A model generated the notes under the pieces. The model had not been told where the DNA came from. It saw only the letters and a program-made list of their open reading frames with translations, and did no database searches. This document shows positions 21,183 through 45,193 of a stretch of DNA of 64,000 nt, in pieces. The position numbers and the translations under genes are program-made. Source of the DNA: Candidatus Deferrimicrobiaceae bacterium (GTDB lineage: Bacteria; Desulfobacterota; Deferrimicrobia; Deferrimicrobiales; Deferrimicrobiaceae); contig CAWBVY010000004.1 in the NCBI GenBank assembly GCA_963792415.1, positions 160,001-224,000 of the forward strand. The letters are read 5' to 3'. Position 1 is the stretch's first letter. Each line of letters opens with the position of its first letter.

Positions 21183-21201
21183 TCGGCCCCTACGGGGCCG
21201 A
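21183..21201 (-). promoter_or_regulatory. SECIS-like hairpin for the arsS UGA
   Basis: TCGGCCCC-GTA-GGGGCCGA, 12 nt 3' of the UGA at 21216..21214. It could also act as a terminator between convergent genes. Confidence 0.7.
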
Positions 21202-22206
21202 TATCGCTCCGCCTCAAGTGAAGCCGGATCCCGCCGTGCAGGCGTAACAGTACTCCCCGATCGCGATCGCGGCGCCGGGCGGAGGAAGTTCGTGCACCTC
21301 CGAGACGTGGACCTTCCGGTCTCCGTGGGGCCGTCCGACGGCCAGGTTGAAATCGCAATCGTACAGGAACCCGTCCCAGGATACGGAGAGGAGCGTTCGG
21401 CACATGAGCCGTTCCACCGCGGAGGGGTTGAAGCCATCCGCGAGCGTTTTCAGATACCGTTCGTGATTTCCCGTCCGCTGCAGCCACGTCCGGAAACGCC
21501 CAAGCGGTACGTTCGCGAACGTGTACAGGCGGTTGAACGCGATCCCCCATTTCCGGAGGAGGTCGGCCCGGAATTTCCGCTCGGCGGTCTCCTGGGAAAC
21601 GGGAAGGAACGCCCCGACAGGGTTGGAGACGAGGTCCAGCTCCAGTCCGGTCCCCTCCATTCCATATCCCGCGGCGTTCAACCTCTTCAGCGCGGCGATC
21701 GCGGCTTCCGTCACCCCCGCGCCACGCTGGGCATCGCCTTGGGACGGATTCGTCGAGGGGAAGGAGGCGACCAGGACGACGCGGTGGGCGGCGCAGAGCG
21801 CGAGAAGAGACTCTCTCCCGGCGCCGTTCAATGCGGAAAGGTTCGTCCGAAGCATCAGGCGGGGCGCAAGCGGGGCGAGTCCTTCGACGAGAAAAGGAAG
21901 GTCGGGCACCAGTTCCGGCGCTCCGCCGGTGATATCGATCGCCTGGAACGGGAACCGCCGGGCGAACGAGACGACCGCCGCCATCGTCTCCCGGGACATG
22001 ACCTCTTCCCTGTCCGGACCGGCCTCGAGGTGGCAATGCCGGCACCGGAGATTGCACAGGTACCCCGTGCTCACCTGGAGGGTATGGACGCGGTCCCGCC
22101 CGAGGGAGACTCCATGACGCGCGAGGGCGTCGGCGAACGGCTCGACCTCGGACGCCTCCCGGACGCCGGTCCCGATCCCCGTCGACATTTCCCCGATCCT
22201 CGCCAC
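21190..22206 (-). CDS. arsS: Arsenosugar-biosynthesis radical SAM selenoprotein ArsS (Sec at TGA 21216..21214)
   Basis: CNLRCRHC radical SAM motif, DITGGAPE, LMCRTLLSVSWDGFLYDCDFN. The C-terminus reads CTAGSGFT-TGA-GGAISAP-TAG, matching the family ending CTAGxGSSCGG with UGA at the Cys position. Confidence 0.88.
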
Positions 22207-22238
22207 GATCCCTTCCTCCAATTCGATTCCTTCCCCGT

Positions 22239-22571
22239 CTACATGGAAAGCTTTTCGGCGATCTTCCGCATCTGCACCCCGTGCACGAGGGATGCGCCGC
22301 CGCGGATCGCCGCCGCCACGTGAACCGCCTCGGTCATCTCGGCCAGGTTCGACCCTTTCTCGAGAGACGCCCGGGTGTACGCGTCGATGCAGTAGGGACA
22401 CTGGACCGCGTGCGCCACCGCGAGGGCGATCAGCGCCTTCTCCCGCTCCGTGAGTTCCCCCTCCTTGAAGACTTCGTCGTAGTAGTCGAAGAACTTCTTC
22501 GCGAGTTCCGGAGCGTCCTTACCGATATCGCCGAACGCGGCGAGACCGGCGGGATCGTAATACGTCTCCAT
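22239..22571 (-). CDS. AhpD/CMD-family peroxidase-like protein associated with ArsS
   Basis: EREKALIALAVAHAVQCPYCIDAY and EAVHVAAAIRGGASLVHG; immediately upstream of arsS. Confidence 0.88.
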   Translation of the reverse strand: METYYDPAGLAAFGDIGKDAPELAKKFFDYYDEVFKEGELTEREKALIALAVAHAVQCPYCIDAYTRASLEKGSNLAEMTEAVHVAAAIRGGASLVHGVQMRKIAEKLSM

Positions 22572-22647
22572 TCCAGACCTCCCGTTCCCCCAGGATGACC
22601 CAATTACGCCGCCGGGCCTCTGACATTATGCCATCCCCGCGGGGGGA

Positions 22648-23643
22648 TCAGCCCGCCGGACAGGCCGCCCCGATGCTTTCCCCTTTCTTTTCCCCGGCCG
22701 TGCACAGGATGTCCTCGAGGCGCTTCCTTCCGGCGGGAGACAACCCCAGTCCGTCGAGCTCCCGCCGAAGGGAGTCGCACGTCCCGTTTCCGGCAACGTA
22801 CCCATTGACGCGGGTGACGGCGGTGGAGGCGAGGAAATCGCGGAACGACGGGTACATCGCCTCGTACTCCTTCATCAGTTCCGACCGGCCCCGGAGCATA
22901 TACTTCTGGTGATACTCCTCGGCCAGGTAGAACCTGGTGGCCGGCCGGATCTCCGTGTAGATCCTTCCCTTCCTCCGGGAGGCCTCGCGGCTCCTGGTCT
23001 CGATCGCCACGGTTTTCTGTTCAACGCCATGGGTAAAGATCGCGGACATGTACTGCCGCCTCCACGGACGTTCCCGCGGGTCATGGCTTGCCCAGAAGAC
23101 GTCGAGCAATGTCCCGTAGGAGATCACGGACGGATCGAAGTCGACCTCGACCGTCTCGATATGGTCCCCGAGGTTCTGATACGTGGGGTTCTCCGTCGAC
23201 CCCCCCGTGTATCCGACGCGGGTGCGGAGAACGCCGGCGAGACTCCCGAACCGGGAGTCGGGACCCCAGAATCAGCCCAGGGCGAAGGTCGCCGTCTCCG
23301 TGACTTTGGGCGGGGATGCATCGATCGGCGGCGTTGCCGTCCCCCGATAGGTTCCCGCCCGTGTCAGCGCTTCCACCATCTTTGCCACCGTGATCTCCGC
23401 GGGGTAGAAGGTAACCGTGTTGATCTCCCTCGGGCCGCGGAAGCCTTTCTCGACTTTTTTCACGCCGTGCAGCCCCTCCAGGGCCGCTTTCCCCACGTCG
23501 TATCAGGCCACGTAGAACGTGACCGTGGAGGTTCCCTTCCCTTGGGATGGCGGGTCGTCGGCCCCCCATGATGCCGATAAGGAGAAAAGGACAAGGAGCA
23601 GGAAGAACGGCAGGATGCGTCGAAATTTCGCTGATGAATCCAT
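22648..23643 (-). CDS. msrA: Exported two-selenocysteine protein: signal peptide, HMA-like Sec domain and Sec methionine sulfoxide reductase A
   Basis: ORF fragments ending at 23503, 23272 and 22648 are in one frame, joined by TGA at 23505..23503 (TFYVA-U-YDVG) and TGA at 23274..23272 (FALG-U-FWG, the MsrA GCFWG motif); GYTGG, PTY, HIETVEV and AEEYHQKY follow; GGAGG RBS before ATG 23643. Confidence 0.85.
23241..23259 (-). promoter_or_regulatory. SECIS-like hairpin for the MsrA catalytic UGA
   Basis: GACTCCCG-GTT-CGGGAGTC, perfect 8-bp stem, 12 nt after the UGA. Confidence 0.8.
23469..23487 (-). promoter_or_regulatory. SECIS-like hairpin for the N-terminal domain UGA
   Basis: GCGGCCCT-GGA-GGGGCTGC, 8 bp with 2 G-U pairs, 15 nt after the UGA. 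Confidence 0.7.
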
Positions 23644-23687
23644 CGGCACTCCCTCCGCGGCACATGGCCGTTTTCTCATGCACATTT

Positions 23688-23713
23688 GTCGCGCCTCGGA
23701 CGGAATCCTTACA
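23688..23713 (-). promoter_or_regulatory. Putative ECF promoter TGTAAG-N16-CGAC upstream of Sec-msrA
   Basis: TGTAAG GATTCCGTCCGAGGCG CGAC; one of four copies with identical spacing. Confidence 0.7.
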
Positions 23714-23743
23714 TTCCGTTCAAAGGGACCCGGACGCTTCCCG

Positions 23744-24388
23744 TCACCCGCCCGCGATTTTCCGGATCGCGGCCACGATCTCCGCCGGCTCCATGCGCAC
23801 GGTGTAGTCCGGGTCCGCCTCCCCCGCCCGGACGATGCCGTCCCTGTCCAGAACGTAGGTCGCCGGAACGGGAAGCTCCCACCGGCCCGCGCCGTTGTAC
23901 TTCTCAAGATTGACCCCGAACTTCTCCAGGTACAACGTCTTGACCTCCCCGGGCACGGCGTACCAGAGGCGATACTTCTTGAGCGTCTCGCTCGTCGCGT
24001 CGCTGAGGATGTCGATGGGGATCGCGTGCTTCTCCGCCATCGTCAGCGTGTTGTCGGGAAGTTCCGGGCTGATACCCACCAGGTCCGCGCCGAGCGACCG
24101 GATCGTCTGCAATTCCTTCGCCAGAGCTGCCAGCTCCAGGTTGCAGTACGGTCACCAGACCCCGCGGTAGAAGTTGAGTACCACCGGGCCCCGGGACAAC
24201 CGTTCCGAAAGCCTCACCGTCTCGCCCCGCTGGTTCGGCAGGGCGAAGTCCGGCGCGCGCTCCCCGATCCGCAGTCCGGCGGCTCCCGATTCCCTCGTGG
24301 AGTCGATCCCCCGGCGGAGGATCGCCACGACCTCCGGCGGCCGGTTCCGGGACGCGTCGAATTCCGCAAGCTCCTTCTTCAGCGACAT
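23744..24388 (-). CDS. Peroxiredoxin-like (AhpC/TSA family) selenoprotein with a UxxC motif
   Basis: GERAPDFALPNQRGE...FYRGVW-TGA-PYCNLEL (family motif FYRGxWCPYCNLEL); TGA 24154..24152 is in frame with ORF 23744..24112 (WELPVPATYV). Confidence 0.9.
24121..24139 (-). promoter_or_regulatory. SECIS-like hairpin for the Prx-like UGA
   Basis: CTGGAGCT-GGC-AGCTCTGG, 12 nt after the UGA. Confidence 0.75.
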
Positions 24389-24408
24389 CTCCATTTCCCC
24401 CTTCCGCT

Positions 24409-24858
24409 CTATTCCAGAGCCTTTCCGGACATGGCGTCGAGCGCCTTTTCCAGCGCCGCGATCGCGTCGTCCTTCCCCCGGATCCCGTGCCGCTCCTTGA
24501 GCCAGGCCGCGGAATTGTAGCTGAGCCAGACCTTGCCCCCTGCGTCCTCCCAGGCCAGCGCCTTGAGCGGCAGGTCGATGGCCACGGTGGGCGCGGCGAC
24601 CATCAGCGGCGTTCCCCCCTTCGGGTTCCCGAAGATCAGGAGCTGGCTCGGCCGCATCTTGAGCCCGACTTTCTCCGCTTCGGCCGCGTGGTCGATCCGG
24701 GCGAAAACGGTCATCCCCTTGGATTGGAGGACGGCGACCAGCCGATCCATCGTCTCGGGAGCGGAATATCGGGAGGACTTCGAGATCAACCCGTTTTCCC
24801 CCGCGAACGCATTGACGGCAACCATGGCCAGCAATACAGCGATCCATGCTTTTCTCAT
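24409..24858 (-). CDS. Exported DUF302-domain protein
   Basis: Signal peptide; FARIDHAAEA, LIFGNPKGGTPLM and IDLPLKALAWED motifs. Confidence 0.85.
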   Translation of the reverse strand: MRKAWIAVLLAMVAVNAFAGENGLISKSSRYSAPETMDRLVAVLQSKGMTVFARIDHAAEAEKVGLKMRPSQLLIFGNPKGGTPLMVAAPTVAIDLPLKALAWEDAGGKVWLSYNSAAWLKERHGIRGKDDAIAALEKALDAMSGKALE

Positions 24859-24903
24859 CGTCCCCTCCTTGTCGTCGAATACCCAGGCTCCTCTATTCCC
24901 GTC

Positions 24904-25614
24904 TCATTCCAGACTCCCGTTGGAAGAGAGGGGTTTCACCTTCCGGCGGTTCTTCACGGCGTTGAGAATCGTGGGCAGGAGGGCGAACAGCCCCAGCAGG
25001 GCGAACGACCCCAGAACCCGCGGGCTTGCCACCTGGCGCACGGTTTCAATGGCCGCGAGGCTCGCCCCCGCGTTCACGAAGACCAGGCTCCCCGGCATGA
25101 TCCCGAACAGCGTCCCCAGGGCGTAGGTCCGAAGCGGCAATCCCGTGACACCGCACGCCAGGTTGACCAGGAAGAACGGGAACGCCGGGACCAGCCGCAG
25201 GAAGAGGAGGTAGGAGAGCCCGTTCTCCCGCAACCCCCGGTCGATCCCCTCCATCCGCCCGCCGAACTTCCTCACCACCCAGTCCCGCAGCAGCGTGCGG
25301 CTGACGAGGAAAGCGAGGATGGCCCCGACGGTGGCGCCCGACACCACGAACAGCGTCCCCTGGAGAACGCCGAAAATCGCTCCGGCGGCGAGAGACAGGA
25401 TGGCCGCCCCCGGGAGGGAGAACGCGGTCTGGACGATGTAGAGCAGAACGAAGACGGCGGCGAACAGAACGGCGTGCGCGGCGCGCAGATCCGAAAGGCG
25501 CGCCTTGTTCGCCTTCAGGCTTTCCAGCGTCAGGTACTTCCCAAGGTCGAGGAAGTAGAACGCGGCCACGACCCCCGCGAATACGAGGAGGATCAGGATC
25601 TTCCGGGTCTTCAT
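24904..25614 (-). CDS. TVP38/TMEM64 (DedA/VTT superfamily) membrane protein
   Basis: SLPGAAILSLAAGAIFG, LRLVPAFPFFLVN and GIMPGSLVFVNAG motifs; ATGA overlap with the upstream oxidoreductase. Confidence 0.88.
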   Translation of the reverse strand: MKTRKILILLVFAGVVAAFYFLDLGKYLTLESLKANKARLSDLRAAHAVLFAAVFVLLYIVQTAFSLPGAAILSLAAGAIFGVLQGTLFVVSGATVGAILAFLVSRTLLRDWVVRKFGGRMEGIDRGLRENGLSYLLFLRLVPAFPFFLVNLACGVTGLPLRTYALGTLFGIMPGSLVFVNAGASLAAIETVRQVASPRVLGSFALLGLFALLPTILNAVKNRRKVKPLSSNGSLE

Positions 25615-27086
25615 CCGGACACCTCTTCCTCCGGCGTGCACGCCCTCCCCTTCAGGTCGAAGAGGAATCGCAGGATCTTCTTCGTCCGGTCGCCGAACAG
25701 CTTCTCGGAGTAGTACGACCCGGCGGCCTTCTTCGAGATCTCCGCGAGCGTCGGGTAGGCGTGGATCGCCCCGGCCATGGTGGAGAGCTTCACCCCGCCG
25801 TTGATCGCGGCGACCCATTCGTGGATCAGTTCGCCGGCATGGGGCCCGGCGATCTGGCAGCCAAGGAGCGCCCCGGACGGGCTGATCAGCACCTTGATCT
25901 TTCCTTCGGTCTCCCCTTCGGCGAGGGCGCGATCCACGTCGCGAAACGCCGCCTCGAGGATCCGGTATTCCACTCCCGCCGCCTTCGCCCGCTTCTCGTT
26001 CAGCCCCACGCTCGCCACCTCGGGATCGGTGTACGTGCACCACGGGACCTTCGCGTAGTCCGCTTTCCTCGGCAACCGGAGCACCGCGTTCGACAGGGCG
26101 ATCCCCGCCTCGTACCCCGCCACGTGGGTGAACGGGAAGACGCCGTTCACGTCGCCGCACGAATAGATGTGCGGAACGTTCGTCCGCATCCGCCGGTCGG
26201 CCGGAACCCCTCGCGGAGAGAACCCGACGCCCGCCGCGGACAACTCCAGCCCCTCGACGTTCGGTTTCCGTCCGGCCGCCACGAGAAGGACATCCCCTTC
26301 GACTGTCCACGCCTCCCCTTCTCCCTTCGCGGGCCCCACCCGCAGTTGCACCGACCCGTTCCCCATGGTCGCCTTGAGGGCTTTCGTGCCGGTGAGGACC
26401 TTCACCCCTTCCGCTTCGAGCCGGTTTCTCAGGATCAAGGCGATGTCCGGGTCCTCGGGACCCAGAACCTGGTCCCCGTATTCGATGAGGGTGACTCCCG
26501 ACCCGAGACGCCGGAACGCCTGCGCCATCTCCACACCGATCGGCCCGCCGCCGAGGATCAGCAGGTGTCCCGGCAGCTCCGTCTGGGAGAAGACCGTCTC
26601 GTTCGTCCAGTACGGGACGTCGGCGATCCCTTCCACGGGCGGCAGGGACGGGCTCGAGCCGGTGGCGATGATCCACGCCCTCGCAGTGAGGCGCGCCCCG
26701 TCGAGGTCGACCGTATGGTCGTCGACGAAGCGCGGGGATCCGAACCGGACTTCCGCGCCGAGCTTGCAGAACCGCTCCGGCGAGTCGTGCTCCTGGATCG
26801 TGTCGATCACCGAGCGGACCCGGCCCATGACGGCGGCGAGGGAGACCGGCGGGAGCGCCACCTCCGGAAGCCCGAACTCCTTCGCGCGGCGGGCGAGGGA
26901 CCAGACCCCGGCCGTCCGGATCAATGTCTTCGATGGGACGCACCCGAAGTGGAGGCAGTCTCCTCCGAGTTTTTTCGCCTTTTCGACGAGGATCGTCTTC
27001 GCGCCGAACTGGGCCGAACCTGCCGCCGCCGTCAACCCTGCCGCTCCCCCTCCAAGGATCCCAAGATCGTAATCAAACGCCGCCAT
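25611..27086 (-). CDS. Class I pyridine nucleotide-disulfide oxidoreductase (MerA/Lpd-like, not true MerA)
   Basis: GGGAAG FAD motif, GGDCLHFGCVPSK redox pair, GGGPIG and HAYPT; no C-terminal CC pair. Confidence 0.88.
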   Translation of the reverse strand: MAAFDYDLGILGGGAAGLTAAAGSAQFGAKTILVEKAKKLGGDCLHFGCVPSKTLIRTAGVWSLARRAKEFGLPEVALPPVSLAAVMGRVRSVIDTIQEHDSPERFCKLGAEVRFGSPRFVDDHTVDLDGARLTARAWIIATGSSPSLPPVEGIADVPYWTNETVFSQTELPGHLLILGGGPIGVEMAQAFRRLGSGVTLIEYGDQVLGPEDPDIALILRNRLEAEGVKVLTGTKALKATMGNGSVQLRVGPAKGEGEAWTVEGDVLLVAAGRKPNVEGLELSAAGVGFSPRGVPADRRMRTNVPHIYSCGDVNGVFPFTHVAGYEAGIALSNAVLRLPRKADYAKVPWCTYTDPEVASVGLNEKRAKAAGVEYRILEAAFRDVDRALAEGETEGKIKVLISPSGALLGCQIAGPHAGELIHEWVAAINGGVKLSTMAGAIHAYPTLAEISKKAAGSYYSEKLFGDRTKKILRFLFDLKGRACTPEEEVSG

Positions 27087-27119
27087 GAAGTCCCCCTTTC
27101 GCTTTCCGTGCTCCGATGA

Positions 27120-27145
27120 GTCGCTGCCGGGGCGAATCCCTTACA
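27120..27145 (-). promoter_or_regulatory. Putative ECF promoter TGTAAG-N16-CGAC upstream of the oxidoreductase operon
   Basis: TGTAAG GGATTCGCCCCGGCAG CGAC. Confidence 0.7.
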
Positions 27146-27242
27146 ACCCTGCCGTTGAGATGACCGGTCGGAGCGAAACGTACCGGGTATAATGTCGGGC
27201 ACGTTACCATCTGGAGCCTCTGGGGACTCCGGAGGAACCGGG

Positions 27243-28130
27243 ATGCGCAAGGAGAGGGAGATGGAACGCGCGGTTCGGGACGAGATCGTTCGCTTCGTGC
27301 TTGAGAGACCGGAGAATCGGCACAGGGAGGGGGAGGGGCGCTATTTCGACGAACCGCTGGTCGGGTTTGCGTCCGCCGCGGACCCGCTCTTCACGGAGTA
27401 CAAGAGGATCATCGGCCCCTTCCACCGGACGCCCGCGCAGTGGATGGCGACGGAACCGGACGCGCAGGTTCTGCTCCAGGGAACGGTCATCTGCTGGATC
27501 CTCCCCGTCACCCGCGCCACGCGCGAGACCAACCGCAGGGAGCGGATGTGTCCTTCCCGGGAGTGGGCGCACACGCGGAATTACGGAGAGAACTTCAACG
27601 TTCTGCTGCGCCAGCACGTGGTCGCGTTTCTCCTCGGGCACGGCCATCGGGCGATCGCCCCGCAGCTTTCCCCGGACTGGAAGCGGGTCGACGGCACCCC
27701 CGCGGGGATCGCCTCCACCTGGTCGGAGCGTCACGCCGCCTATGCCGCCGGCCTGGGGACCTTCAGCCTCAACGACGGCCTGATCACCGAGCGGGGGATC
27801 GCGCACCGTTGCGGGAGCGTGATCACCGACCTGGTCCTCCCGCCCACCAGAAGGTCCGGCACCGACCATCGGAGGAATTGCCTGTACTTCCGGGAGGGGG
27901 GTTGCGGAGTCTGCATCGACCGGTGCCCGGCGGGAGCGCTCTCCCGGGAAGGGCACGACAAACCGAAGTGCCGTGAGTATTGCCACGTGGAGATTCCTCG
28001 CGCCGTGGGGGAGCGGTTCCAGGTGTCCGAACTCGGCTGCGGCCTCTGCCAGACGATGGTCCCCTGCGAGGGGTCGATCCCGCGCGGGAAGGGACGACCG
28101 GAACCCGGCGAGGAGGCGCGCAGGGATTGA
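27243..28130 (+). CDS. Epoxyqueuosine reductase (QueG)-like Fe-S protein
   Basis: PLVGFASAADPLF, WSERHAAYAAGLGTF, GSVITDL, CGVCIDRCPAGA and CGLCQTMVPC motifs. Confidence 0.75.
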   Translation: MRKEREMERAVRDEIVRFVLERPENRHREGEGRYFDEPLVGFASAADPLFTEYKRIIGPFHRTPAQWMATEPDAQVLLQGTVICWILPVTRATRETNRRERMCPSREWAHTRNYGENFNVLLRQHVVAFLLGHGHRAIAPQLSPDWKRVDGTPAGIASTWSERHAAYAAGLGTFSLNDGLITERGIAHRCGSVITDLVLPPTRRSGTDHRRNCLYFREGGCGVCIDRCPAGALSREGHDKPKCREYCHVEIPRAVGERFQVSELGCGLCQTMVPCEGSIPRGKGRPEPGEEARRD

Positions 28131-28134
28131 TGCA

Positions 28135-28815: not shown

Positions 28816-28955
28816 TCCTTGGCGACCTCCCTCTTCGTCCTCTCCTCCCGAACATTGTGGCCGAAGGGCGCCGCGCGGTCCATGCCCTGATTCACGCTCC
28901 CACCCGATCCGGAAGCGGGGATTGCCACGTTCGCGGGAAAATGAGATAAAAAAGC

Positions 28956-29540
28956 GTGGCGAAGCCCGCGAATACGGACCCGGCGGAGTGGGTCGACCGG
29001 TACGGGGACTACCTGTTCCGGTACGCGATGGTCCGGCTGCGGGACCGCCCTTCGGCAGAGGACCTGGTCCAGGAGACATTCCTCGCCGCGCTCAAGGACT
29101 ACGGCTCCTTTTCCGGAAAGTCTTCCGAGTCGACCTGGTTGGTCGGCATCCTGAAACACAAGATCCTCGACCACTTCCGGCGCCAGGCCCGGGAGGCTCC
29201 CGTCGCGGACAGCGATCTCCGGGAGCATCCCGATCCCTCCTCCTTCGACGGGTCGGGACATTGGGCGAAAGGACCGACCGACTGGGGCGGCAACCCGGCG
29301 GACCTCTACCGGGAGAAGAAATTCCTCGATCAGCTCACGAAATGCCTCTCCGGTCTTTCCCCGAACCATGCGAACGCCTTCACCCTCCGGGAGATCGAGG
29401 GGGCGGACACCGGCGAGATCTGTAAGGTTTTGAACGTCACCGAGACCAACCTCTGGGTGATTCTCCACCGCTCGCGGATGCTCCTGCGGCGGTGCCTGGA
29501 GGCCAACTGGTTCGAAAAGAGAGCGGAGAAGGGATCCTGA
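28956..29540 (+). CDS. ECF sigma-70 factor (resembles the Neisseria SigE/TIGR02943 type)
   Basis: YLFRYAMVRLRD, AEDLVQETFLAA, TWLVGILKHKILD and EICKVLNVTETNLWVILHRSR motifs. Confidence 0.9.
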   Translation: MAKPANTDPAEWVDRYGDYLFRYAMVRLRDRPSAEDLVQETFLAALKDYGSFSGKSSESTWLVGILKHKILDHFRRQAREAPVADSDLREHPDPSSFDGSGHWAKGPTDWGGNPADLYREKKFLDQLTKCLSGLSPNHANAFTLREIEGADTGEICKVLNVTETNLWVILHRSRMLLRRCLEANWFEKRAEKGS

Positions 29541-29782
29541 TGCTTTCCTGTAAGGATGTGACAAAGCTCCTCTCCGAGTCGATGGACACCTCTCTGCCCA
29601 TCGGCAAGCGGATCGGCGTGCGCTTCCATCTCCTCATCTGCAAGTTCTGCTTGAGGTACGAACGGCAGCTCCTCCTGATACGCGAAACCGTGCGACGCCT
29701 CGCGGCGACGGAAGGGATTCCAGGAGAAACCCTTTCGGCGGAGACGAGGGAGCGGATCCGGAAATCCCTCGCAACGCCGTAA
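29540..29782 (+). CDS. Small zinc-finger (zf-HC2) anti-sigma factor
   Basis: MLSCKDVTKLLSES...HLLICKFC; TGATG coupling to the sigma gene. Confidence 0.88.
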   Translation: MLSCKDVTKLLSESMDTSLPIGKRIGVRFHLLICKFCLRYERQLLLIRETVRRLAATEGIPGETLSAETRERIRKSLATP

Positions 29783-29882
29783 TCCCCTTCGAACGGGCCC
29801 TCTGCCCGGACCCCTCAACCGCCGTGCGACATTCGGAACCACGGGTGCGTGGCGGGGAAGCAACGCTCGGGATTCCGCACCG

Positions 29883-30614
29883 TTATGCCCCGCGCAGCAG
29901 GAAAAGGATCGGCACGGGAGCGATCGCCAGGCATACGGCGAACAGGTACTTCGGGTAGGGGAAGAGACGGCTCATCCCGGCGACGAGCCCGATCCCCCCG
30001 CCGCCTCCGATGAGGGCGTTGCCGGGAAGGTTGAACAGAACGGCGATGACGAGGTATCGGTGCCGGAGCAGGAAGGGGACGATCCGCGAAGGGACGCTCT
30101 GAAGAAGGAAACGGAGCCGCTCCTCCGGATCGAGGGGCACGAGAACCGCGACCAGGTCCCGGGCCCGGTCGAGGTGGAACCAGTCCAGGGCGCGCACGAG
30201 AATCCGGGGGGGGAGAAGCCGGCCGAGCAGGAAGCTCAGGGTAAGGGCCAGGACCGTCGCAAGATACACGAGGGCGATCCCCGGGCGACCGAACAGAACC
30301 ATGACCATGAGGCCGATTTCGACCCCCGGAAGGAACGGGATCGCAAGGAGAAGCACGTACGCGGCGACGGAGGCGGTCAGCACCGTGAGCGCCATGTTGA
30401 TGTGGCGAGGCCACAACTGAAACGCGATCTGTTTCGCGATCCACCCCATGCCGTAATTCAGGAAGACGAGGACGAGGAGGAAGAGCGCGACCTTGCCCGC
30501 AACCCGCACGCCCCCCCGAGCGCTCTTCCCGACGGATTCCCCCGCAACGCGCGCCTGCTCGCCGGAACGCGTCCCGACGTCGCAGGGGGGAATCCTATCC
30601 GTGCCGGAGGTCAT
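29883..30614 (-). CDS. Membrane protein, distant TVP38/DedA-like
   Basis: LLAIPFLPGVEIG, LSFLLGR and NLPGNALIGGGGGI; several transmembrane segments; ATGA overlap with the upstream gene. Confidence 0.7.
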   Translation of the reverse strand: MTSGTDRIPPCDVGTRSGEQARVAGESVGKSARGGVRVAGKVALFLLVLVFLNYGMGWIAKQIAFQLWPRHINMALTVLTASVAAYVLLLAIPFLPGVEIGLMVMVLFGRPGIALVYLATVLALTLSFLLGRLLPPRILVRALDWFHLDRARDLVAVLVPLDPEERLRFLLQSVPSRIVPFLLRHRYLVIAVLFNLPGNALIGGGGGIGLVAGMSRLFPYPKYLFAVCLAIAPVPILFLLRGA

Positions 30615-31414
30615 TCGGCCGGACCGCCCCGGTACCAGTAGTGCCGATCGACCTTCCAGTACCACCGATCGTGGACCCAATGGGCCGTGGCCTCCATGAC
30701 ATCCCCCCGCACGGTTCCCTCCCAATACATGGCGCCGTGCGTCGGGCTCGTCGTTTCCGCCCGGAAACGGATCCCGTTCCCTTCCACGGCAGCCGAATAG
30801 GACGATTTCCCGAAGTTCTGCTCCACACAACCGCTCGAGACGAACATCCCGTCCCGGAAGATCATGTAATCGTCGTGGTCGGCCGATTTCCCATTTTCCC
30901 CCGTCCGGACGAAGAACGTCCGCCCATCCAGTAGGGTCGAGGTCCCCGTGCCGCGTGCAGACGCACCGGCGGGATTCTTTACCTCCTCCCCCCTGGCCCA
31001 ATACTCCCGCTTCGGATGCGGATCGTACCACTTGGGGGCGTCCGCCCAGGTGTAGCCGACATCGATCTCCCCTCCCCGCACCGTGCCCTCCCAGTGGATC
31101 GTCCCCCGCGATCCGCTCTTCGTGTCGGCCACGAACATGATGCCGTCTTCGCTTTTCGTGGAGACGTAGCCCCCCTCGCGAAATCCGTCCCACTTGTCGC
31201 GGATGGTCGAGCGGAATGTCCCGTTCCGGAAGAGATACACGTCTCTACCGTCAGCCTTTTCTCCCTTCGACCCGTTTTCGACGAGGAATACCATCCCGTC
31301 CAGGGATCCCTGGCCGGCGGATACGTCCCGGGGGATAAAGAACAGGCCGACACACAGGACGATTGCCAGAACCAACCGGTTGCGATTGGCACCCGATAGA
31401 AGTTTCATTTCCAT
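30611..31414 (-). CDS. Exported hypothetical protein with two tandem homologous domains
   Basis: Signal peptide; LDG..F.V..G..G..AD..D...FR.G.F.S ... GI.F.A.T.S...G...WEGTVRG occurs twice. Confidence 0.75.
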   Translation of the reverse strand: MEMKLLSGANRNRLVLAIVLCVGLFFIPRDVSAGQGSLDGMVFLVENGSKGEKADGRDVYLFRNGTFRSTIRDKWDGFREGGYVSTKSEDGIMFVADTKSGSRGTIHWEGTVRGGEIDVGYTWADAPKWYDPHPKREYWARGEEVKNPAGASARGTGTSTLLDGRTFFVRTGENGKSADHDDYMIFRDGMFVSSGCVEQNFGKSSYSAAVEGNGIRFRAETTSPTHGAMYWEGTVRGDVMEATAHWVHDRWYWKVDRHYWYRGGPAE

Positions 31415-31708
31415 ATCGTTTCCCTCTCTGCAACTTCCAACGAAATCGCCGTTCCGGATTTACGGATGCCGCTGGTGCCACCCTGTGGTCACTTATAAAA
31501 CAGGACTTCCCGGAGCCTGATCGAAGTTTCCTGAAGGTAGGATGTCCCGTCAGCTCCTTCCGTTCTCCCCTTGGCGCACAAATCCGCCAAGAGATCGTTT
31601 CCGAGGGTAGCACCCGAAACGACAATGGTCCTGTTTGGTGTGCGACCCTCCAGGGCCGGGGGCGTTCCCCGCCGGAACACATTCCTCGTCGGGATTCCTA
31701 CGTCCCGG

Positions 31709-31734
31709 TGTAAGGATCCCGGGGGGCGATCGAC
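31709..31734 (+). promoter_or_regulatory. Putative ECF promoter TGTAAG-N16-CGAC
   Basis: TGTAAG GATCCCGGGGGGCGAT CGAC, upstream of the short ORF at 31782. Confidence 0.65.
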
Positions 31735-31781
31735 TCATCAACAGGCATCGGATGGTGCCAATCCGGTATTGGAGGTTCTAC

Positions 31782-31928
31782 ATGCAAGGGAAACATAAAA
31801 TTGTACGTTCGCTGTTGGTGGTCGTCATTTCCCTCGTTGCCGGACTCGCCTTGGCGGCAGGGGAACAGCAGGTCTCCCTGAAACCCGACACGGCGGGGGA
31901 AGGAGCATCGTCGCGATCCTCACGATGA
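31782..31928 (+). pseudogene. Signal-peptide-only ORF (48 aa), probable remnant of a truncated exported protein
   Basis: GGAGG RBS, MQGKHKIVRSLLVVVISLVAGLALA-AGEQ signal peptide, stop soon after. Confidence 0.45.
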
Positions 31929-31940
31929 AATGTTTCCCCG

Positions 31941-31966
31941 TGTAAGGAATCTCCCCGGGTCACGAC
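31941..31966 (+). promoter_or_regulatory. Putative ECF promoter TGTAAG-N16-CGAC upstream of msrB-msrA
   Basis: TGTAAG GAATCTCCCCGGGTCA CGAC. Confidence 0.7.
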
Positions 31967-32022
31967 CAACCGGCATCGAGGGGGCAAACAATGCATCTAA
32001 TACGAAACAGGAGGGACGCAGC

Positions 32023-32622
32023 ATGCGATCCAGGACGAACCGCAGGGATTTTCTTCGGCTGATGGGTGCGGCGGCCGGTGTCGCGGTGGGCGCGACGCTA
32101 CCCGCGATCCTCGGCGGCCGGCTCACCGGATCGGGCGGTTTCACCGATACGGCGCGAGCTGCCGAGCGATCCGCGCCGCGTTCGATCCGGGTGTATTCCG
32201 TCGAAAAGGGGAGCTACGTCATGACCCAGACCGTTGTGAAAACGAACGAAGAGTGGAAAAAAATCCTGACGCCCGAGCAGTACCACATCCTGCGGGAGAA
32301 GGGGACGGAGCGGGCTTTCACCGGCAAGTACGACAAGAATCATGAGCACGGAATCTACCGCTGCGCCGGCTGCGAGCTCGAGCTGTACCGTTCGGAAGAG
32401 AAGTACGACTCCAGGACCGGCTGGCCGAGCTTCACGGCGCCGATCGCGCCGGAGAACGTAAGCACCCGGCCCGACAACAGCCTCTTTTCCCGGCGCACCG
32501 AAGTGGTTTGCCCCCGGTGCGACGGACACCTCGGCCACGTGTTCGACGACGGGCCGAAGCCGACCGGAAAGCGATACTGCATGAACTCGGCGGCCCTGCA
32601 GTTCGTCGCCACCGCAAAATAG
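32023..32622 (+). CDS. msrB: Peptide methionine (R)-S-oxide reductase with Tat signal
   Basis: NRRDFLR twin-arginine motif; GTERAFTG, CAGC, GWPSF, CPRC, GHLGHVFDDGP and RYCMNS. Confidence 0.95.
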   Translation: MRSRTNRRDFLRLMGAAAGVAVGATLPAILGGRLTGSGGFTDTARAAERSAPRSIRVYSVEKGSYVMTQTVVKTNEEWKKILTPEQYHILREKGTERAFTGKYDKNHEHGIYRCAGCELELYRSEEKYDSRTGWPSFTAPIAPENVSTRPDNSLFSRRTEVVCPRCDGHLGHVFDDGPKPTGKRYCMNSAALQFVATAK

Positions 32623-32647
32623 ACCGGTCCTCGGGGAGGGGGCTCTT

Positions 32648-33262
32648 ATGAAAACGTTGCTCTTCGGATTGTTTGCGCTTCCCTTGATGCTCGTCGCCGC
32701 CGGTACGGTCAACGCCGCCGCCACCCTCGAAAAAGCGACCTTCGCCGGGGGCTGTTTCTGGTGCATGGAGCACCCGTTCGACGCGTTGCCGGGAGTGGTG
32801 TCGGTCACGTCCGGCTACACGGGAGGGCAGAAGGTGAATCCCACCTATAAAGAGGTCTCGGCCGGCGGGACCGGCCACGCGGAGGCGGTGCAGATCGTCT
32901 ACGACCCTTCGAAGATCCATTACGGGAAGCTTCTCGACGTCTTCTGGCACAACATCGATCCGACCACGGTGGACCGCCAGTTCTGCGATTCCGGCAACCA
33001 GTACCGGTCGGCGATTTTCTACCACACGGAGGAACAGCACAAGGAGGCGTTGCAGTCGAAGGCGGCGCTGGAGAAGTCGAAGCCCTTCAGGGAGCCGGTG
33101 GTCACCGAAATCGTCCCCGCCGGCGAATACTATGCGGCGGAGGAGTACCACCAGCAATACTACAAGAAGAACCCGATCCGGTACCGGTATTACAGGAGCG
33201 GATGCGGCCGGGACCGGAGGCTCAAGGAACTGTGGGGGAGCGCGACCGGAGGGGAAAAGTAG
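32648..33262 (+). CDS. msrA: Peptide methionine (S)-S-oxide reductase, Cys form, with signal peptide
   Basis: FAGGCFWCME, SGYTGG, GHAEAVQ, QFCD and AEEYHQQYY motifs. Confidence 0.95.
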   Translation: MKTLLFGLFALPLMLVAAGTVNAAATLEKATFAGGCFWCMEHPFDALPGVVSVTSGYTGGQKVNPTYKEVSAGGTGHAEAVQIVYDPSKIHYGKLLDVFWHNIDPTTVDRQFCDSGNQYRSAIFYHTEEQHKEALQSKAALEKSKPFREPVVTEIVPAGEYYAAEEYHQQYYKKNPIRYRYYRSGCGRDRRLKELWGSATGGEK

Positions 33263-33296
33263 CAGGGAGACGGCGGGAGGCCCTGCGCGGAGGGCC

Positions 33297-33581
33297 TTAC
33301 CCGCCGCAGCCGCAGGAAGGCTTCGAACCGGTAAGCCACCCGTTCAGGATCGCGGCGGCGCACCCCACGCCCGGATTCACCGAGATCGCCTGCGTCGGGC
33401 AATTCCTCGCGCACGCCCCGCACTCCATGCAGGCGTCGCGGTCGAGGATCCGGGCCTTGCCGTCCGCCACGGCGTAGACCCCGTGAGGACACACCTCCTC
33501 GCACATCCCGCACCCGATGCATGCGGCATCGGCGAGACGCACGGTGGCAACGCCTTCGATATATCGAAACCCGTCCATCAC
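33297..33581 (-). CDS. hgcB: Mercury methylation ferredoxin HgcB
   Basis: Two CX2CX2CX3C motifs including the diagnostic CMECGAC; GVGCAAA; C-terminal CGC; directly downstream of hgcA. Confidence 0.95.
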   Translation of the reverse strand: MMDGFRYIEGVATVRLADAACIGCGMCEEVCPHGVYAVADGKARILDRDACMECGACARNCPTQAISVNPGVGCAAAILNGWLTGSKPSCGCGG

Positions 33582-33600
33582 GATCCCCCCTCGACCGATA

Positions 33601-34731
33601 TCAACGGAGAAACGCCCCCCCGACCCAGAGGAGGCCGGCCACTGCCGTCAGGCCCGCCTGGACGGGAAGGGCCCTGCGCATCTCCTTCTCCACGCCCGAC
33701 GGGGACGTGAACGGCGTCGCACCGGTGAAATTCATTGCGGTGAACGACGAGACCGTCGTCATCGCAAGCAGCAGCGCCAGCGCCGTGGGCGTCTCCAACG
33801 TTCCGCGGTACCACATCACCGCGCAAGCCCCGAGGACGGCTCCCGCCAGACCCCCCTTGACCGAAAACGCCCGCCCGGGAAGCCAGGGGAGAAGCACCGG
33901 GGTCACCACGGCACCCGCCAGGATCCCGGCCGCGAGGACTTCCACCGCGCTGAACCCACGCTCCCAAGCCGCACCGAGGGAGAAGATCCCCGGCCCGACG
34001 CCCGCGAGCAGGAACAGGACGGCCGCCGCCCACCCCGCGGTACGCAATAGACCCGTGATTTCGACCGGCGTCAGGACGAGGCGGTCCATCGTGGGGAAAT
34101 CGACCCTTCGCATCTCCGGAGACGCCTTCAACCCGGCCTCGAGGAACGCACGGATGTCGCAGGCGCGCACCGGACCGTACGCCACCGTGAAGCCGCACCC
34201 TTTCCGGACCTCGTGGGCGGCGACCCCGGGCGCGCCGAGCTGCGGAAGGATCAGCATGCGGTGGCGCACCACCTCCGATAACCGCGCCTCCGTCACCCTG
34301 CGGATCACTTCTCCGGTTCCGAAGGTCCCCTCCCCGGCGGCGCACCAGACGTTGACTCCCGAGGTGTCGAGGACCAGGATCCATGCGTCCAGCCCCGCCG
34401 CGTCGCGGCGCACGACGTCGAAGGTCAATTTATAGTTGGCGGTAACCAGGACGGGCGCGTCCGCCCCCGGTGCCCCCAGCGCGTACAGGCCCGGGACGAC
34501 GCGGTAGCGGTCCCTGCCGATCCCCCACCGAATTTTCCACCGGCCCACGAGGTCGCGCCCCCCGATCCGCGAATGTACGCGGGGAACCGGCCCGGCCGGC
34601 GTCTCCACCTGCCCGGCCACAAACGTATCCTCGTAGCGGGGTACGGCCGTCGACGGCGAACCCCCGCCGCAACAGGGTGATCCCTTCCCGCTCGGGGGCG
34701 CGCAGCACTCCCCGCTCTTCGCTTCGCTCAT
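33601..34731 (-). CDS. hgcA: Mercury methylation corrinoid protein HgcA
   Basis: PVLVTANYKLTFD, cap helix GVNVWCAAGEGTFGT, LILPQLGAPGV, YGPVRA, C-terminal transmembrane helices and NFTGATPFTSPSGVEKEM. Confidence 0.95.
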   Translation of the reverse strand: MSEAKSGECCAPPSGKGSPCCGGGSPSTAVPRYEDTFVAGQVETPAGPVPRVHSRIGGRDLVGRWKIRWGIGRDRYRVVPGLYALGAPGADAPVLVTANYKLTFDVVRRDAAGLDAWILVLDTSGVNVWCAAGEGTFGTGEVIRRVTEARLSEVVRHRMLILPQLGAPGVAAHEVRKGCGFTVAYGPVRACDIRAFLEAGLKASPEMRRVDFPTMDRLVLTPVEITGLLRTAGWAAAVLFLLAGVGPGIFSLGAAWERGFSAVEVLAAGILAGAVVTPVLLPWLPGRAFSVKGGLAGAVLGACAVMWYRGTLETPTALALLLAMTTVSSFTAMNFTGATPFTSPSGVEKEMRRALPVQAGLTAVAGLLWVGGAFLR

Positions 34732-34747
34732 CCCCTCTTCCCCCCCG

Positions 34748-35026
34748 TCATCCTTTCGGGAGCAGGTCCGCCATCAGGGGGCCGAGCACTCCCTTGAGCA
34801 TCGTGCTGAGTTCCTCGACCTTGATCAGCGAGAGGCAGCACACCTTCCCCTCTTTCTCCCAGCCGATCAGCGCCAGCTTGTCGCCCCCCCTGATCCCCGC
34901 CCTGTCCCGGAGATCCTTGGGGAGGACCATCTGCCCCCGCTCGTCCACCGTCACCAGCGACTCGACCTTGCACCCCCCGAACGACGGCGTCGTGCAGCAC
35001 GACCCGCTCTTTCCCTGCTTCCTCAT
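34748..35026 (-). CDS. hgcC: HgcAB-associated AbrB/MazE-like protein (HgcC-type)
   Basis: CC...CKVESLVTVDERGQMVLPKDLRDRAGIRGGDKL (AbrB-type) and VCCL; immediately upstream of hgcA. Confidence 0.8.
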   Translation of the reverse strand: MRKQGKSGSCCTTPSFGGCKVESLVTVDERGQMVLPKDLRDRAGIRGGDKLALIGWEKEGKVCCLSLIKVEELSTMLKGVLGPLMADLLPKG

Positions 35027-35065
35027 GTCCGGGCCTCCCGTGAAGCAACCCCATGAAACCAAAAT

Positions 35066-35120
35066 ATCTGACAAATCAGATTATACTGATAATACTGCCC
35101 GCGGGACGCACCGGTGTCAA
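35066..35120 (-). promoter_or_regulatory. Promoter/operator region of hgcC-hgcA-hgcB
   Basis: TTGACA (35120..35115), tandem CAGTATTAT-CAGTATAAT and palindrome ATCTGA-N4-TCAGAT (35066..35081). TTGACA-to-TATTAT spacing is 20 nt, which is non-canonical. Confidence 0.5.
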
Positions 35121-35247
35121 GTGGGCATTTCACGCCCGGCTTTCCATGCGCCACCGCCCGCGCTTCGTGGTTGACCCCGGTCAAGGACGGGGCGGGGGGG
35201 AAGAGGGAGAGTGAAGCCGTGGAAATCAGGTCCCCGGAGGTACGACG

Positions 35248-35628
35248 ATGAGCGACCCCGTGTTCGCGCGGCCCAGGAACGATCCCGAGTTCGACCCGAA
35301 ACGGTTCCTCCCCCGGCCCCTGTTCGAAAGCCCGGAGATGAAGGTGGTCCGCGCCACGTTCCGCGCGGGGCAATTCATCCCCGTCCACGCCCCGGACGTG
35401 CACGTCGCCCTTTATATCCTTTCCGGGGAAGGGGAAGTGGTCGCCGGGACGGAGCGCCGAAGCGTCACGGAAGGGGATCTCGTCGTTGTCCCGAGGAAGG
35501 TCCGGCGGGGCGTCAAGGCGAAGACCGACATGATCGTGCTGCACGTCGTCTCGCCGTCCCCGACGCAGGCCGACCACGGCGACATGGGGGAGCGGATCGC
35601 CCGCGGGGAGTTCGAACTCCCGGCCTGA
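35248..35628 (+). CDS. Cupin-domain protein
   Basis: GQFIPVHAP, YILSGEG and EGDLVVVP motifs. Confidence 0.8.
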   Translation: MSDPVFARPRNDPEFDPKRFLPRPLFESPEMKVVRATFRAGQFIPVHAPDVHVALYILSGEGEVVAGTERRSVTEGDLVVVPRKVRRGVKAKTDMIVLHVVSPSPTQADHGDMGERIARGEFELPA

Positions 35629-35643
35629 CCCGATCCCCGTCCT

Positions 35644-36186
35644 TCATTTCCCGGCGTTTTTCGGGATCGGCGGAATGAAGGGTTCCCCGGGGCGCCAGCC
35701 GACGGGGGTCAACTCCCCGGTTTTGAGCGCGGACAGGAGCCGCAGAATCTCGTCGACGCTCCTTCCCACGGTCAGGTCCTGCACGCCGTACGCCCGGACG
35801 AGCCCGTCCGGATCGATGAGGAACGTCCCCCGAAGCGCGGCCCCGAGCCTCTCCAGCAGGACCCCGTACTCCCTCGAGACCTGCTTGGTGAAATCGGCGA
35901 GCAGGGGGAAGCGCAACTCCCCCAGCTCCTGGTTGACCCAGGCCAGGTGGGAAAACTTGCTGTCCGTGCTGATCCCAAGGATCTGCGCGCCTGCCGAGGC
36001 GAATTCGTTCTCCCGCCGGGAGAACTCAAGGATCTCCGAGTTTCATATGGGGGTGAAGTCGAACGGGTAGAAGAACAGGACGACCCACTTCCTTTTGTAG
36101 TCCGACAGTCTGATCTCCCGGAACTGCTTCCCCACGACTCCGGACAGCTCGAACGTCGGCGCCGGGCCATTCACCTGGACCGCCAT
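35644..36186 (-). CDS. AhpC/Prx1-type peroxiredoxin selenoprotein (Sec at TGA 36045..36043), no cysteine
   Basis: [22 protein letters not shown] (family motif FYPxDFTFVCPTE) is in frame with [29 protein letters not shown] and [10 protein letters not shown]. Confidence 0.9.
36007..36025 (-). promoter_or_regulatory. SECIS-like hairpin for the AhpC UGA
   Basis: GTTCTCCC-GGC-GGGAGAAC, perfect 8-bp stem, 17 nt after the UGA. Confidence 0.78.
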
Positions 36187-36254
36187 GTGCGTCCCCCTTT
36201 CATGGAACTCGTGTCCACGATCCGATGAAACCGGCATTCATCCGCTGGCACGGA

Positions 36255-37373: not shown

Positions 37374-37478
37374 GGGGTTCCCCTCCTTCCCGTCAGCCAG
37401 ATCTCCCGGAACGATTTCCCCACGACTCCAGGCATTCCGCTGGAGGCCACGTGCGTCCCCCCTTTCACGTCATGGAAT

Positions 37479-37817: not shown

Positions 37818-38108
37818 GACCTGTGTCCCTTTCAACGCAAATGCGTACCTGGTTCCTCGCCCATCGAGTATGGCATAAAAATTATGACTCTAAACGGCAG
37901 CCATTCCCCCAGGCCGGATGACTCCATGGAGCAGGAGGAGGAGGATCTCCGGGGTATCTATCCACAGGCACCACTCCTGCGTTCTTCCCTGTGGCAAACT
38001 CCGCGTTGCATTTATCAAAAATAATCTATAATCCGGTAACATCCGCAAGCACAACGCTCCGGACGCGGAGATATACGGCCCATACCCCCTGACCGTGAGG
38101 AGGGTTCG

Positions 38109-39404: not shown

Positions 39405-39429
39405 AGGGCAGCGGGAAGGGAACGCCCGC

Positions 39430-43732: not shown

Positions 43733-43747
43733 AGCAAAGCTCTCCCG

Positions 43748-45193
<1,446 letters not shown>

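Follow-up and report, generated by a model that had tools for sequence, protein, structure and literature searches.

Four probable selenoprotein genes with five in-frame UGA codons near the hgcCAB genes of a Candidatus Deferrimicrobiaceae bacterium

The stretch of DNA considered here, which we call the window, comprises 64,000 nucleotides (positions 160,001 to 224,000 of contig CAWBVY010000004.1, assembly GCA_963792415.1) from a Candidatus Deferrimicrobiaceae bacterium, and all coordinates below are those of the window unless a related locus is named. Between 21190 and 36186 it holds four genes with five in-frame TGA codons, as well as the mercury-methylation genes hgcC, hgcA and hgcB (hgcCAB). 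A first-pass annotation, made from the sequence alone, had taken the five codons to encode selenocysteine (Sec, or U) and the region to be a co-located selenium/arsenic/mercury (Se/As/Hg) redox-defence module. Our follow-up confirms the observation, and the Sec reading is strong; the link to hgcAB is the weak part. We consider it likely that all four genes encode genuine selenoproteins, that their five UGAs are Sec codons, and that they belong to a family-level redox neighborhood that happens to adjoin hgcCAB.

Lists of open reading frames (ORFs) for this DNA are full of spurious frames because its G+C content is ~67%. Genes were chosen via the base composition of their third and second codon positions (GC3/GC2) together with Pfam and NCBIfam matches. 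All five in-frame TGAs and their four genes lie on the minus strand. The selenoprotein candidates and hgcCAB, in order along the window, are:

21190 to 22188, minus strand: ArsS-type radical SAM selenoprotein candidate; Sec codon 21214-21216, TAG stop 21190-21192, start placed at about 22188.
22648 to 23643, minus strand: exported two-Sec protein candidate with a signal peptide, a MerP/HMA-fold domain and MsrA; TGA stop 22648-22650.
23503-23505 and 23272-23274, minus strand: the Sec codons of the two-Sec protein, in the MerP/HMA-fold domain and in MsrA (GUFWG), respectively, within a single ORF.
23744 to 24394, minus strand: Prx-like (AhpC/TSA fold) selenoprotein candidate with the motif WUPYC (UxxC); U at 24152-24154.
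33297-33581, minus strand: hgcB, Cys form (127 bits against a cut-off of 99).
33601-34731, minus strand: hgcA, Cys form (443.6 bits against 275).
34748-35074, minus strand: hgcC, Cys form (117.4 bits against 70).
35644 to 36186, minus strand: AhpC/Prx1-type selenoprotein candidate with the motif TPIU (TxxU); U at 36043-36045.

The models behind hgcC, hgcA and hgcB are NF040962, NF040863 and NF040864, in that order, and all three score above the curated cut-off. The two peroxiredoxin-type proteins match PF00578 (AhpC-TSA, cut-off 26) with 105.9 bits for the Prx-like and 133.2 bits for the AhpC-type protein.

All five UGAs of the first-pass annotation were found where it had put them. It had further set four of them at conserved Cys positions, and this is borne out for AhpC, Prx-like and MsrA by structure alignment and for ArsS via its family model. 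The MsrA part of the two-Sec protein (TIGR00401, 128.2 bits against 108.1) reads ...FALG-U-FWGPD... and, when aligned with solved structures, places U on the Cys of GCFWG. Its best match is 4lwj/4u66 (199 bits, residues 117-302), which we take to be the Sec-MsrA of Clostridium/Alkaliphilus oremlandii, crystallized as the Cys form. Both have the same C-terminal extension; unlike that enzyme, the window protein is exported and has a second Sec-bearing domain ahead of MsrA, where the site reads ...TFYVA-U-YDVGK....

In the Prx-like protein (...RGVW-U-PYCN...), U falls on the peroxidatic Cys of the archaeal BCP 2cx3, and in the AhpC-type protein (...DFTPI-U-NSEI...) on that of human Prx2 (180 bits). 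The resolving-Cys motif VCPxxW aligns to LTPVGW in the AhpC-type protein, with Thr instead of Cys; this departs from the typical 2-Cys pattern, and the protein would therefore act as a 1-Sec enzyme, if at all. Table 2 of PMC2398784, in the part of that paper available to us, lists Prx (TxxU), Prx-like 1 (UxxC) and Sec-MsrA among the prokaryotic selenoprotein families, and the two window proteins share with these Prx families the Pfam family, the Sec motifs and U on the peroxidatic Cys.

The ArsS candidate matches TIGR04167, the NCBIfam equivalog 'arsenosugar biosynthesis radical SAM (seleno)protein ArsS', with 362.6 bits against a cut-off of 300 and over profile positions 2-303 of 303. The Pfam families Radical_SAM and DUF3641 (1-134 of 134) are also matched, and the radical SAM motif CxxxCxxC is present as CNLRCRHC. 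The TGA at 21214-21216 lies 8 codons ahead of the TAG stop of this ORF, so that the protein would end ...SGFT-U-GGAISAP. No solved structure spans the ArsS C-terminus, and the Cys correspondence there comes solely from the end-to-end match to the '(seleno)protein' model.

Alignments to Cys homologs, which the first-pass annotation had proposed as a check, gave the expected residue at both sites of the two-Sec protein. For MsrA, 26 of 120 matches were chosen, and the U column of the full-length rows holds Cys in 16 of 21, Trp in 4 of 21 and Ser in 1. For the N-terminal domain (37 of 104 matches chosen) it holds Cys in 25 of 36 rows and Trp in 11 of 36. In both alignments the Trp rows are probably TGA codons called as Trp (table 4) by gene callers.

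Public gene calls cut these proteins at the UGA, as the first-pass annotation had supposed when it spoke of genes reported as fragments. Among the matches listed, all MsrA relatives of at least 66% identity are without the U-bearing part. In a set of 5.8 billion sequences we found 98 close relatives of the N-terminal domain, of which 97 begin just past the U and one has W; 33 of these 98 public fragments have their end precisely at the MsrA UGA, a sign of the fused form.

For comparison among genomes, an HgcA scan with one genome per species gave 80 loci, of which 14 form a close set (our loci L001-L013 and L024; HgcA 76-88% identical) and the remaining 66 are more distant. Where named, the close loci belong to Candidatus Deferrimicrobium or Deferrimicrobiaceae (MBNT15). 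The MBNT15 phylum is described in PMC9386147, the available part of which mentions neither selenoproteins nor hgc.

The first-pass annotation had named TAA, TAG or frameshifts at these codons in relatives as what would speak against Sec. In the relatives, however, the codon is TGA in every one of the 13 ortholog copies, which come from four independent metagenome-assembled genomes (MAGs). It is kept in ArsS in 3/3 (L008, L012, L024), in the extra domain ahead of MsrA in 3/3 (L003, L008, L024), in MsrA in 2/2 (L008, L024), in the Prx-like gene in 2/2 (L003, L024) and in AhpC in 3/3 copies (one in L003 and two in L024). The ratio of nonsynonymous to synonymous differences (pN/pS), from a crude difference count, was 0.09-0.32 after the U and 0.10-0.43 before it. 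After the U it was 0.14-0.32 for the two-Sec protein (counted from its first U), 0.09-0.14 for the Prx-like protein and 0.16-0.20 for AhpC.

The two Sec-AhpC copies of L024 stand in tandem (6884-7425 and 9314-9850 of that locus), and one is split across two frames. The hgcA, ArsS and oxidoreductase genes of L024 are also in frame-shifted pieces, which looks like MAG assembly error, not biology.

A hairpin resembling a bacterial selenocysteine insertion sequence (bSECIS) had been reported after each UGA, and this held for five of five. In the bSECIS model the apical-loop G lies 16-37 nt downstream of the UGA. Our rule called for a stem of at least 8 bp, a loop of 3-8 nt whose first or second base is G, and a loop start at +14 to +37. 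After all five UGAs an uninterrupted stem of 8 bp bears a 3-nt loop that begins with G and lies at +20 to +25; the hairpins begin 12-17 nt past the UGA, and in extended form their folding energies are -13.7 to -20.9 kcal/mol. They are, all on the minus strand:

21183 to 21201: ArsS hairpin, loop GUA at +20; it spans the TAG stop, which sits in the loop.
23241 to 23259: MsrA hairpin with an 8-bp stem and the loop GUU at +20; L008 and L024 have exactly this stem.
23469 to 23487: hairpin of the N-terminal domain with an 8-bp stem and the loop GGA at +23; unchanged in L003, L008 and L024.
24121 to 24139: Prx-like hairpin, 8 pairs (two of them G-U), loop GGC at +20; the loop is GUC in L024.
36007 to 36025: AhpC hairpin, 8-bp stem, loop GGC at +25.

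With both strands considered, 4.2% of window positions satisfy the same rule, as do 38 of 1126 TGA triplets, and against that 4.2% background five of five is far above expectation, even in G+C-rich DNA. Among the TGAs followed by a stem of at least 7 bp, these five alone lie in a long open frame and have coding-type GC3/GC2 both before and after the codon (for ArsS, before it only). Two further candidates, the TGAs at 546 (plus strand, 10-bp hairpin) and 63167 (minus strand), give Ser/Arg/Pro-rich translations without the look of a family and were judged by eye to be antisense.

The hairpins of the relatives are nearly invariant overall. Since MAFFT misregistered the set of 18 hairpins, pairs were counted by script on ungapped 25-nt segments instead. 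In the AhpC hairpin one U-A pair has become C-G in L003, a compensatory change for which L024 shows the intermediate U-G; the ArsS hairpin keeps 7-8 of its 8 pairs in relatives, with G-C changed to G-U in L024.

Several points weigh against the Sec reading and should be kept in mind. One pair of the ArsS hairpin is mismatched in each of L008 and L012, and only 7 codons are left past the ArsS UGA, so selection there is uninformative. All the loops are just 3 nt as drawn, the only SelB-type feature scored is that they start with G, and Rfam at gathering thresholds gave no match in the window. The AhpC-type protein, which unlike PrxU has Thr for the resolving Cys, scores below the PrxU cut-off (NF040737, 157.3 against 270), and the Prx-like protein lies under all NCBIfam cut-offs. 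Scans with ARAGORN and NCBIfam found no selA, selB, selD or tRNA-Sec in the 64-kb window, where ARAGORN in fact reports no tRNA of any kind. The decoding machinery is assumed, since none of it lies within those 64 kb; selA, selB, selC and selD would presumably be encoded elsewhere in the genome.

All things considered, the five UGAs are very probably real Sec codons. Each would be decoded as Sec with the help of a hairpin that puts a G-first apical loop 20-25 nt past the UGA, the geometry expected for bacterial SelB-dependent recoding, and Sec would take the place of the catalytic Cys in enzymes of redox repair and redox chemistry. The AhpC/Prx1-type protein would be a cytoplasmic peroxidase with a peroxidatic selenol, of the 1-Sec kind (TxxU, without a resolving Cys), and the Prx-like UxxC protein a cytoplasmic selenol-thiol oxidoreductase. 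The two-Sec protein would be an exported methionine-S-sulfoxide reductase with catalytic Sec, preceded by a fused MerP/HMA-fold domain with a second Sec, while the ArsS radical SAM enzyme may work with the AhpD-like protein encoded beside it.

The two-Sec protein is the one part of the region that goes beyond known families, and it therefore deserves a closer look. Pfam, HMA included, matches nothing in the first 105 residues encoded by the MsrA gene, even at E = 1. A HMMER search of 1.84 billion representatives returned 104 relatives of this extra domain (36-143 aa), many of which begin exactly past the U. Most of the aligned members are ~100 aa long, carry a signal peptide and share the conserved motif F-x-V-x-[C/W]-Y-D-V-G. 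The family amounts to ~100 clusters at 50% identity, mostly annotated fragments or 'CopZ'; Joint Genome Institute (JGI) names for the fragments are 'copper chaperone CopZ' or hypothetical, and a look-up of a Cys homolog in Atlas led to 'hypothetical protein' clusters alone (scores 0.82-0.88). No fused form of 182-581 aa with this domain occurs among predicted proteins, an absence that is to be expected if callers always cut at the UGA.

An AlphaFold model of the extra domain (residues 40-102, predicted local distance difference test 97-98) has the order beta-alpha-beta-beta-alpha-beta, with Sec at the beginning of helix 1. Its top match in the Protein Data Bank is MerP 1osd (E 7.9e-5, template modeling score 0.81 by target, root-mean-square deviation 1.8 A, 32% identity), below which come other HMA domains and then, lower down, MsrA structures. 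The domain profile weakly matches MerP (E 2.8e-4), CopA and MsrA, the Cys motif being aligned to GCFWG in the last. NCBIfam matches of the members all lie below the cut-off: the selenoprotein models NF041383 in 36 of 38 and NF041115 in 30 of 38, CopZ in 9 of 38 and MerP in 5 of 38.

The extra domain is thus like MerP and other HMA domains in its fold, in being exported and in the place of its Sec, which opens helix 1 as CxxC does in MerP. It differs in having a single Sec/Cys, in F-x-V-x-[U/C]-Y-D-V-G; the metal loop lacks a second Cys, and there is no GMxCxxC motif. It also falls short of NF041115, the UxxU metal-binding (seleno)protein model (32.4 bits against a cut-off of 95). 'MerP' selenoproteins are listed in PMC2398784, as far as the available part of that paper goes.

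The extra domain and MsrA form one ORF in the window and in L024. In L008 (17389-18788 of that locus), a separate gene (17630-18022) ending in TGA encodes the extra domain, and a Sec-MsrA follows in another frame with a hydrophobic N-terminus of its own. In a 75-aa ORF just upstream of this Sec domain in L008, the N-terminal end of the Prx-like protein runs directly into its C-terminal end; the ORF looks like the remnant of an internal deletion.

Because of this fusion/split pattern and the shared export, we prefer, tentatively and with rather less than even confidence, to see the extra domain as a built-in redox partner of the exported MsrA, in which a recycling selenol would resolve the selenenic acid. 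Two points weigh against a partner role: the fusion/split pattern and adjacency come from one lineage only, and the nearest fold is that of a mercury-binding protein, with which a metal role fits equally well. Metal binding is indeed the main alternative for this domain.

The genes surrounding the four candidates, which the first-pass annotation had listed in the main as they are found here, were matched by Pfam and NCBIfam as follows:

19058 to 21159, plus strand: zwf and pgl, convergent with ArsS (Pfam G6PD_N/G6PD_C and Glucosamine_iso).
22239 to 22571, minus strand: AhpD/CMD-like protein with a CPYC motif (TIGR04169, 196.6 bits against 120).
24409-24858, minus strand: DUF302 protein with a signal peptide.
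24904 to about 25608, minus strand: DedA/VTT membrane protein.
25611-27086, minus strand: class-I pyridine nucleotide-disulfide oxidoreductase with a CLHFGC site.
27192-28130, plus strand: 312-aa ORF with a weak 4Fe-4S signal.
28956 to 29782, plus strand: extracytoplasmic function (ECF) sigma factor (TIGR02943, 164.8 bits against 162.2) and zf-HC2 anti-sigma factor (NF052368, 65.1 against 50).
31930 to 33262, plus strand: MsrB with a twin-arginine signal (RRDFLR) and a Cys-type MsrA with a signal peptide, which converge on hgcB tail to tail.

From 27086 down to 21190, the genes for the oxidoreductase, DedA/VTT, DUF302, Prx-like, extra-domain/MsrA, AhpD-like and ArsS proteins are all co-directional on the minus strand. 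A DUF3047 gene and a membrane ORF without a family also lie between the oxidoreductase and MsrB genes, near the ECF pair. A cupin gene (plus strand) stands between hgcC and the AhpC-type selenoprotein gene, and thrC (minus strand) is next to the latter. Together with the exported MsrA and MsrB, the oxidoreductase with DedA, and the ECF sigma/anti-sigma pair, the four candidates would make up an oxidative-damage and thiol-redox repair neighborhood of one family.

TIGR04169 is the 'arsenosugar biosynthesis-associated peroxidase-like protein', and the AhpD-like gene goes with ArsS, a known pair going by the NCBIfam names; the two are also adjacent in L008, L012 and L024. As in that pair, both window proteins are above cut-off and neighbors, and Sec is near the ArsS C-terminus. 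The difference is that no arsM or other arsenic gene is seen near the window ArsS; arsenosugar synthesis in the present anaerobe is putative.

The disulfide oxidoreductase was considered as a MerA and rejected, with a MerA model score of 343.5 bits against a cut-off of 454.45 and without the C-terminal Cys pair. Its nearest models are named 'FAD-containing oxidoreductase'. It is directly upstream of DedA/VTT (the two occupy 24904-27086), a pair that is kept in L003, L012 and L024.

Elsewhere in the window, G+C falls to 0.61-0.62 at 36000-40000, where neither Pfam nor NCBIfam matches the ORFs 37890-38345 (minus) and 38109-39404 (plus). The origin region (rnpA, yidC, mnmE, mnmG, rsmG, parB, dnaA, dnaN) and an F1Fo ATP synthase operon occupy 43325-62000, and the selenoprotein genes are ~23-38 kb from dnaA. 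At 11478-15078 (minus) there are two cobaltochelatase-like genes whose ~240 N-terminal residues are nearly identical, which suggests a recent duplication. A small familyless gene (~130 aa, ~12497-12900) lies between these paralogs in another frame, and the TGA at 12497 (minus), tried as a Sec candidate, is its ordinary stop.

The hgcCAB genes themselves encode Cys forms. Haft and Gwadz (bioRxiv 10.1101/2022.07.06.499078), in the part available to us, report Sec in most HgcA proteins, where the motif PCUGP lies in an extension at the N-terminus, and in 17 of 266 HgcB proteins. The present case resembles theirs in that selenocysteine is tied to methylmercury genes and that the selenoproteins are hidden by truncated annotation. 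It differs in where Sec is found, which is inside HgcA or HgcB in that work and in neighboring genes here. The HgcA N-terminus (34650-34731, minus) has GECC and SPCC without a TGA, and no PCUGP; the same CC type is seen in each of the 12 close relatives for which this segment is available, and HgcB has Cys throughout. A crude regular expression for C-U-G hit 2 of the 80 HgcA loci (L023, L065), with a U nearby in L029 and L039; the search patterns skewed this sample to CC-type HgcA, and it is no guide to the frequency of Sec-HgcA. In a limited literature search for hgcAB and selenocysteine, we found no description of selenoprotein genes flanking hgcAB.

The alternative that deserves most attention is that the selenoproteins, ArsS and hgcCAB form one Se/As/Hg defense or handling module, in which selenols would bind or buffer Hg(II) and methylmercury and zwf-pgl would supply NADPH. 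The genes are physically close in the window, and the arrangement partly recurs in relatives. Ties of selenium to methylation are already known from the many HgcA proteins with a PCUGP Sec motif in the work just cited. In PMC7438021, as far as we have its text, hgcAB is found near acr3, arsC, arsM or arsR, so the first-pass annotation was right that such links are in print; ArsS is not mentioned in that part. As in those neighborhoods, hgcAB here is within a few genes of an arsenic-related gene; unlike them, that gene is ArsS, ~11 kb off. ArsS is also the sole arsenic-related gene among the window ORFs scanned with NCBIfam, which include no arsR, arsC, acr3 or arsM.

The gene order argues against a single module. 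hgcCAB and the selenoprotein genes belong to different transcription units: the AhpC selenoprotein gene shares its strand with hgcC and lies upstream of it, but the opposite-strand cupin gene stands between them, and the ArsS/MsrA/Prx-like run is ~9 kb from hgcB with genes of both strands between. Synteny across related MAGs, by which the first-pass annotation had meant its proposal to be judged, tells against it in turn, as the selenoprotein genes come and go among the close relatives:

L024: the full set of four selenoprotein genes, AhpC in two copies.
L003: Prx-like, the start of Sec-MsrA, and AhpC beside thrC, 7.7 kb from a cupin-hgcCAB block in which the cupin gene is next to hgcC.
L008: Sec-MsrA (split form), AhpD-like, ArsS and the deleted Prx-like remnant.
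L012: AhpD-like and ArsS only (no Prx-like, Sec-MsrA or AhpC gene), with thrC adjoining the cupin gene without AhpC; zwf-pgl again adjoins ArsS.
L005: no selenoprotein gene within 10 kb on either side.

AhpC is not beside the hgc block in six close loci (L001, L002, L005, L008, L009, L012), and in L003 it tracks thrC. The core conserved among close relatives is cupin, hgcC, hgcA, hgcB, Cys-MsrA and MsrB. Cys-MsrA is next to hgcB in 11 of the 14 close loci, and the other 3 show no more than 1.8 kb past hgcB. The exported MsrB/Cys-MsrA pair is the best-kept neighbor of hgcCAB in the family, above any selenoprotein gene. At least one of the ECF sigma/anti-sigma genes adjoins msrB in L001, L003, L004, L010, L012 and L024 (in L024 the anti-sigma gene alone passed the 60% filter). 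One of the close loci, L009 (HgcA 82% identity, same cupin-hgcCAB order), is labeled Actinomycetota, likely a binning or labeling issue.

Not one of the 66 distant hgcA loci holds a homolog of even a single one of the four genes (tblastn, E 1e-8; 895 kb of flank in all, with at least 5 kb on both sides in 36 loci). MsrB is found in 3 of the 66, one of which also has a Cys-MsrA fragment. The variable synteny and the 0/66 point to descent within one family with frequent gain and loss, not to a signature of hgcAB. On the other side, it counts against mere adjacency that 4 of the 5 close relatives with enough sequence keep some selenoprotein genes within 10 kb of hgcB, which leaves room for a lineage-specific functional tie. 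On balance, we judge a Se/As/Hg module to be unlikely. Were it true, it would matter for mercury biogeochemistry; the comparative data give it no support beyond one family.

A narrower version of this idea concerns the extra domain of the two-Sec protein, whose MerP-like fold and weak matches to the MerP and CopZ models could be taken in favor of a mercury role. The single-Sec, MerP-fold domain would then be an exported selenol that binds Hg(II) or methylmercury and works with hgcCAB in Deferrimicrobiaceae. The one Sec, the missing second Cys and the lack of a Pfam HMA match speak against metal handling, and we regard this reading as a little more doubtful still than the module. If it were true, the domain would, for example, hand Hg to the methylation system or take methylmercury from it, or would shield the exported repair enzymes; the island would be a selenium-mercury module, and the family a group of unrecognized periplasmic selenoprotein metal carriers.

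As to the codons themselves, it is very unlikely that UGA is read as another residue, be it Trp or Gly by a change of code or Cys by near-cognate read-through. The Trp rows in the N-domain and MsrA alignments might suggest it, and these would most simply be TGA=Trp gene calls. TGA ends many family-confirmed genes of the window at the end of the profile (e.g., gatB, uvrD, zwf, hgcA, thrC and mnmG), so it is not a general sense codon here. Trp or Gly at a catalytic Cys site would kill the activity, and site-specific hairpins speak for recoding of the SelB type.

Hardest to maintain is the view that the UGAs are ordinary stops in pseudogenes, split genes or assembly errors, for although standard gene calling yields fragments and the window has no Sec machinery, the TGAs fall on the catalytic Cys column (for ArsS, going by the family model), all five have the hairpin, and pN/pS past them equals that ahead. 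Pseudogenes, assembly error and an altered code are thus poor explanations because the TGAs are conserved, selection continues past them, and TGA is an ordinary stop elsewhere.

The selenoprotein families found here are known ones, and the architectural variant is the exported two-Sec fusion of a MerP-fold domain with MsrA. For an uncultured lineage of mercury methylators (MBNT15/Deferrimicrobiaceae), the region provides a set of Sec codons that is clean and well controlled, and systematic truncation at UGA in public gene calls distorts the functional profiles of methylators. The two-Sec fusion offers a testable idea of how a 1-Sec MsrA might be recycled outside the cytoplasm; less likely, its extra domain would be a selenol metal carrier adjoining hgcAB.

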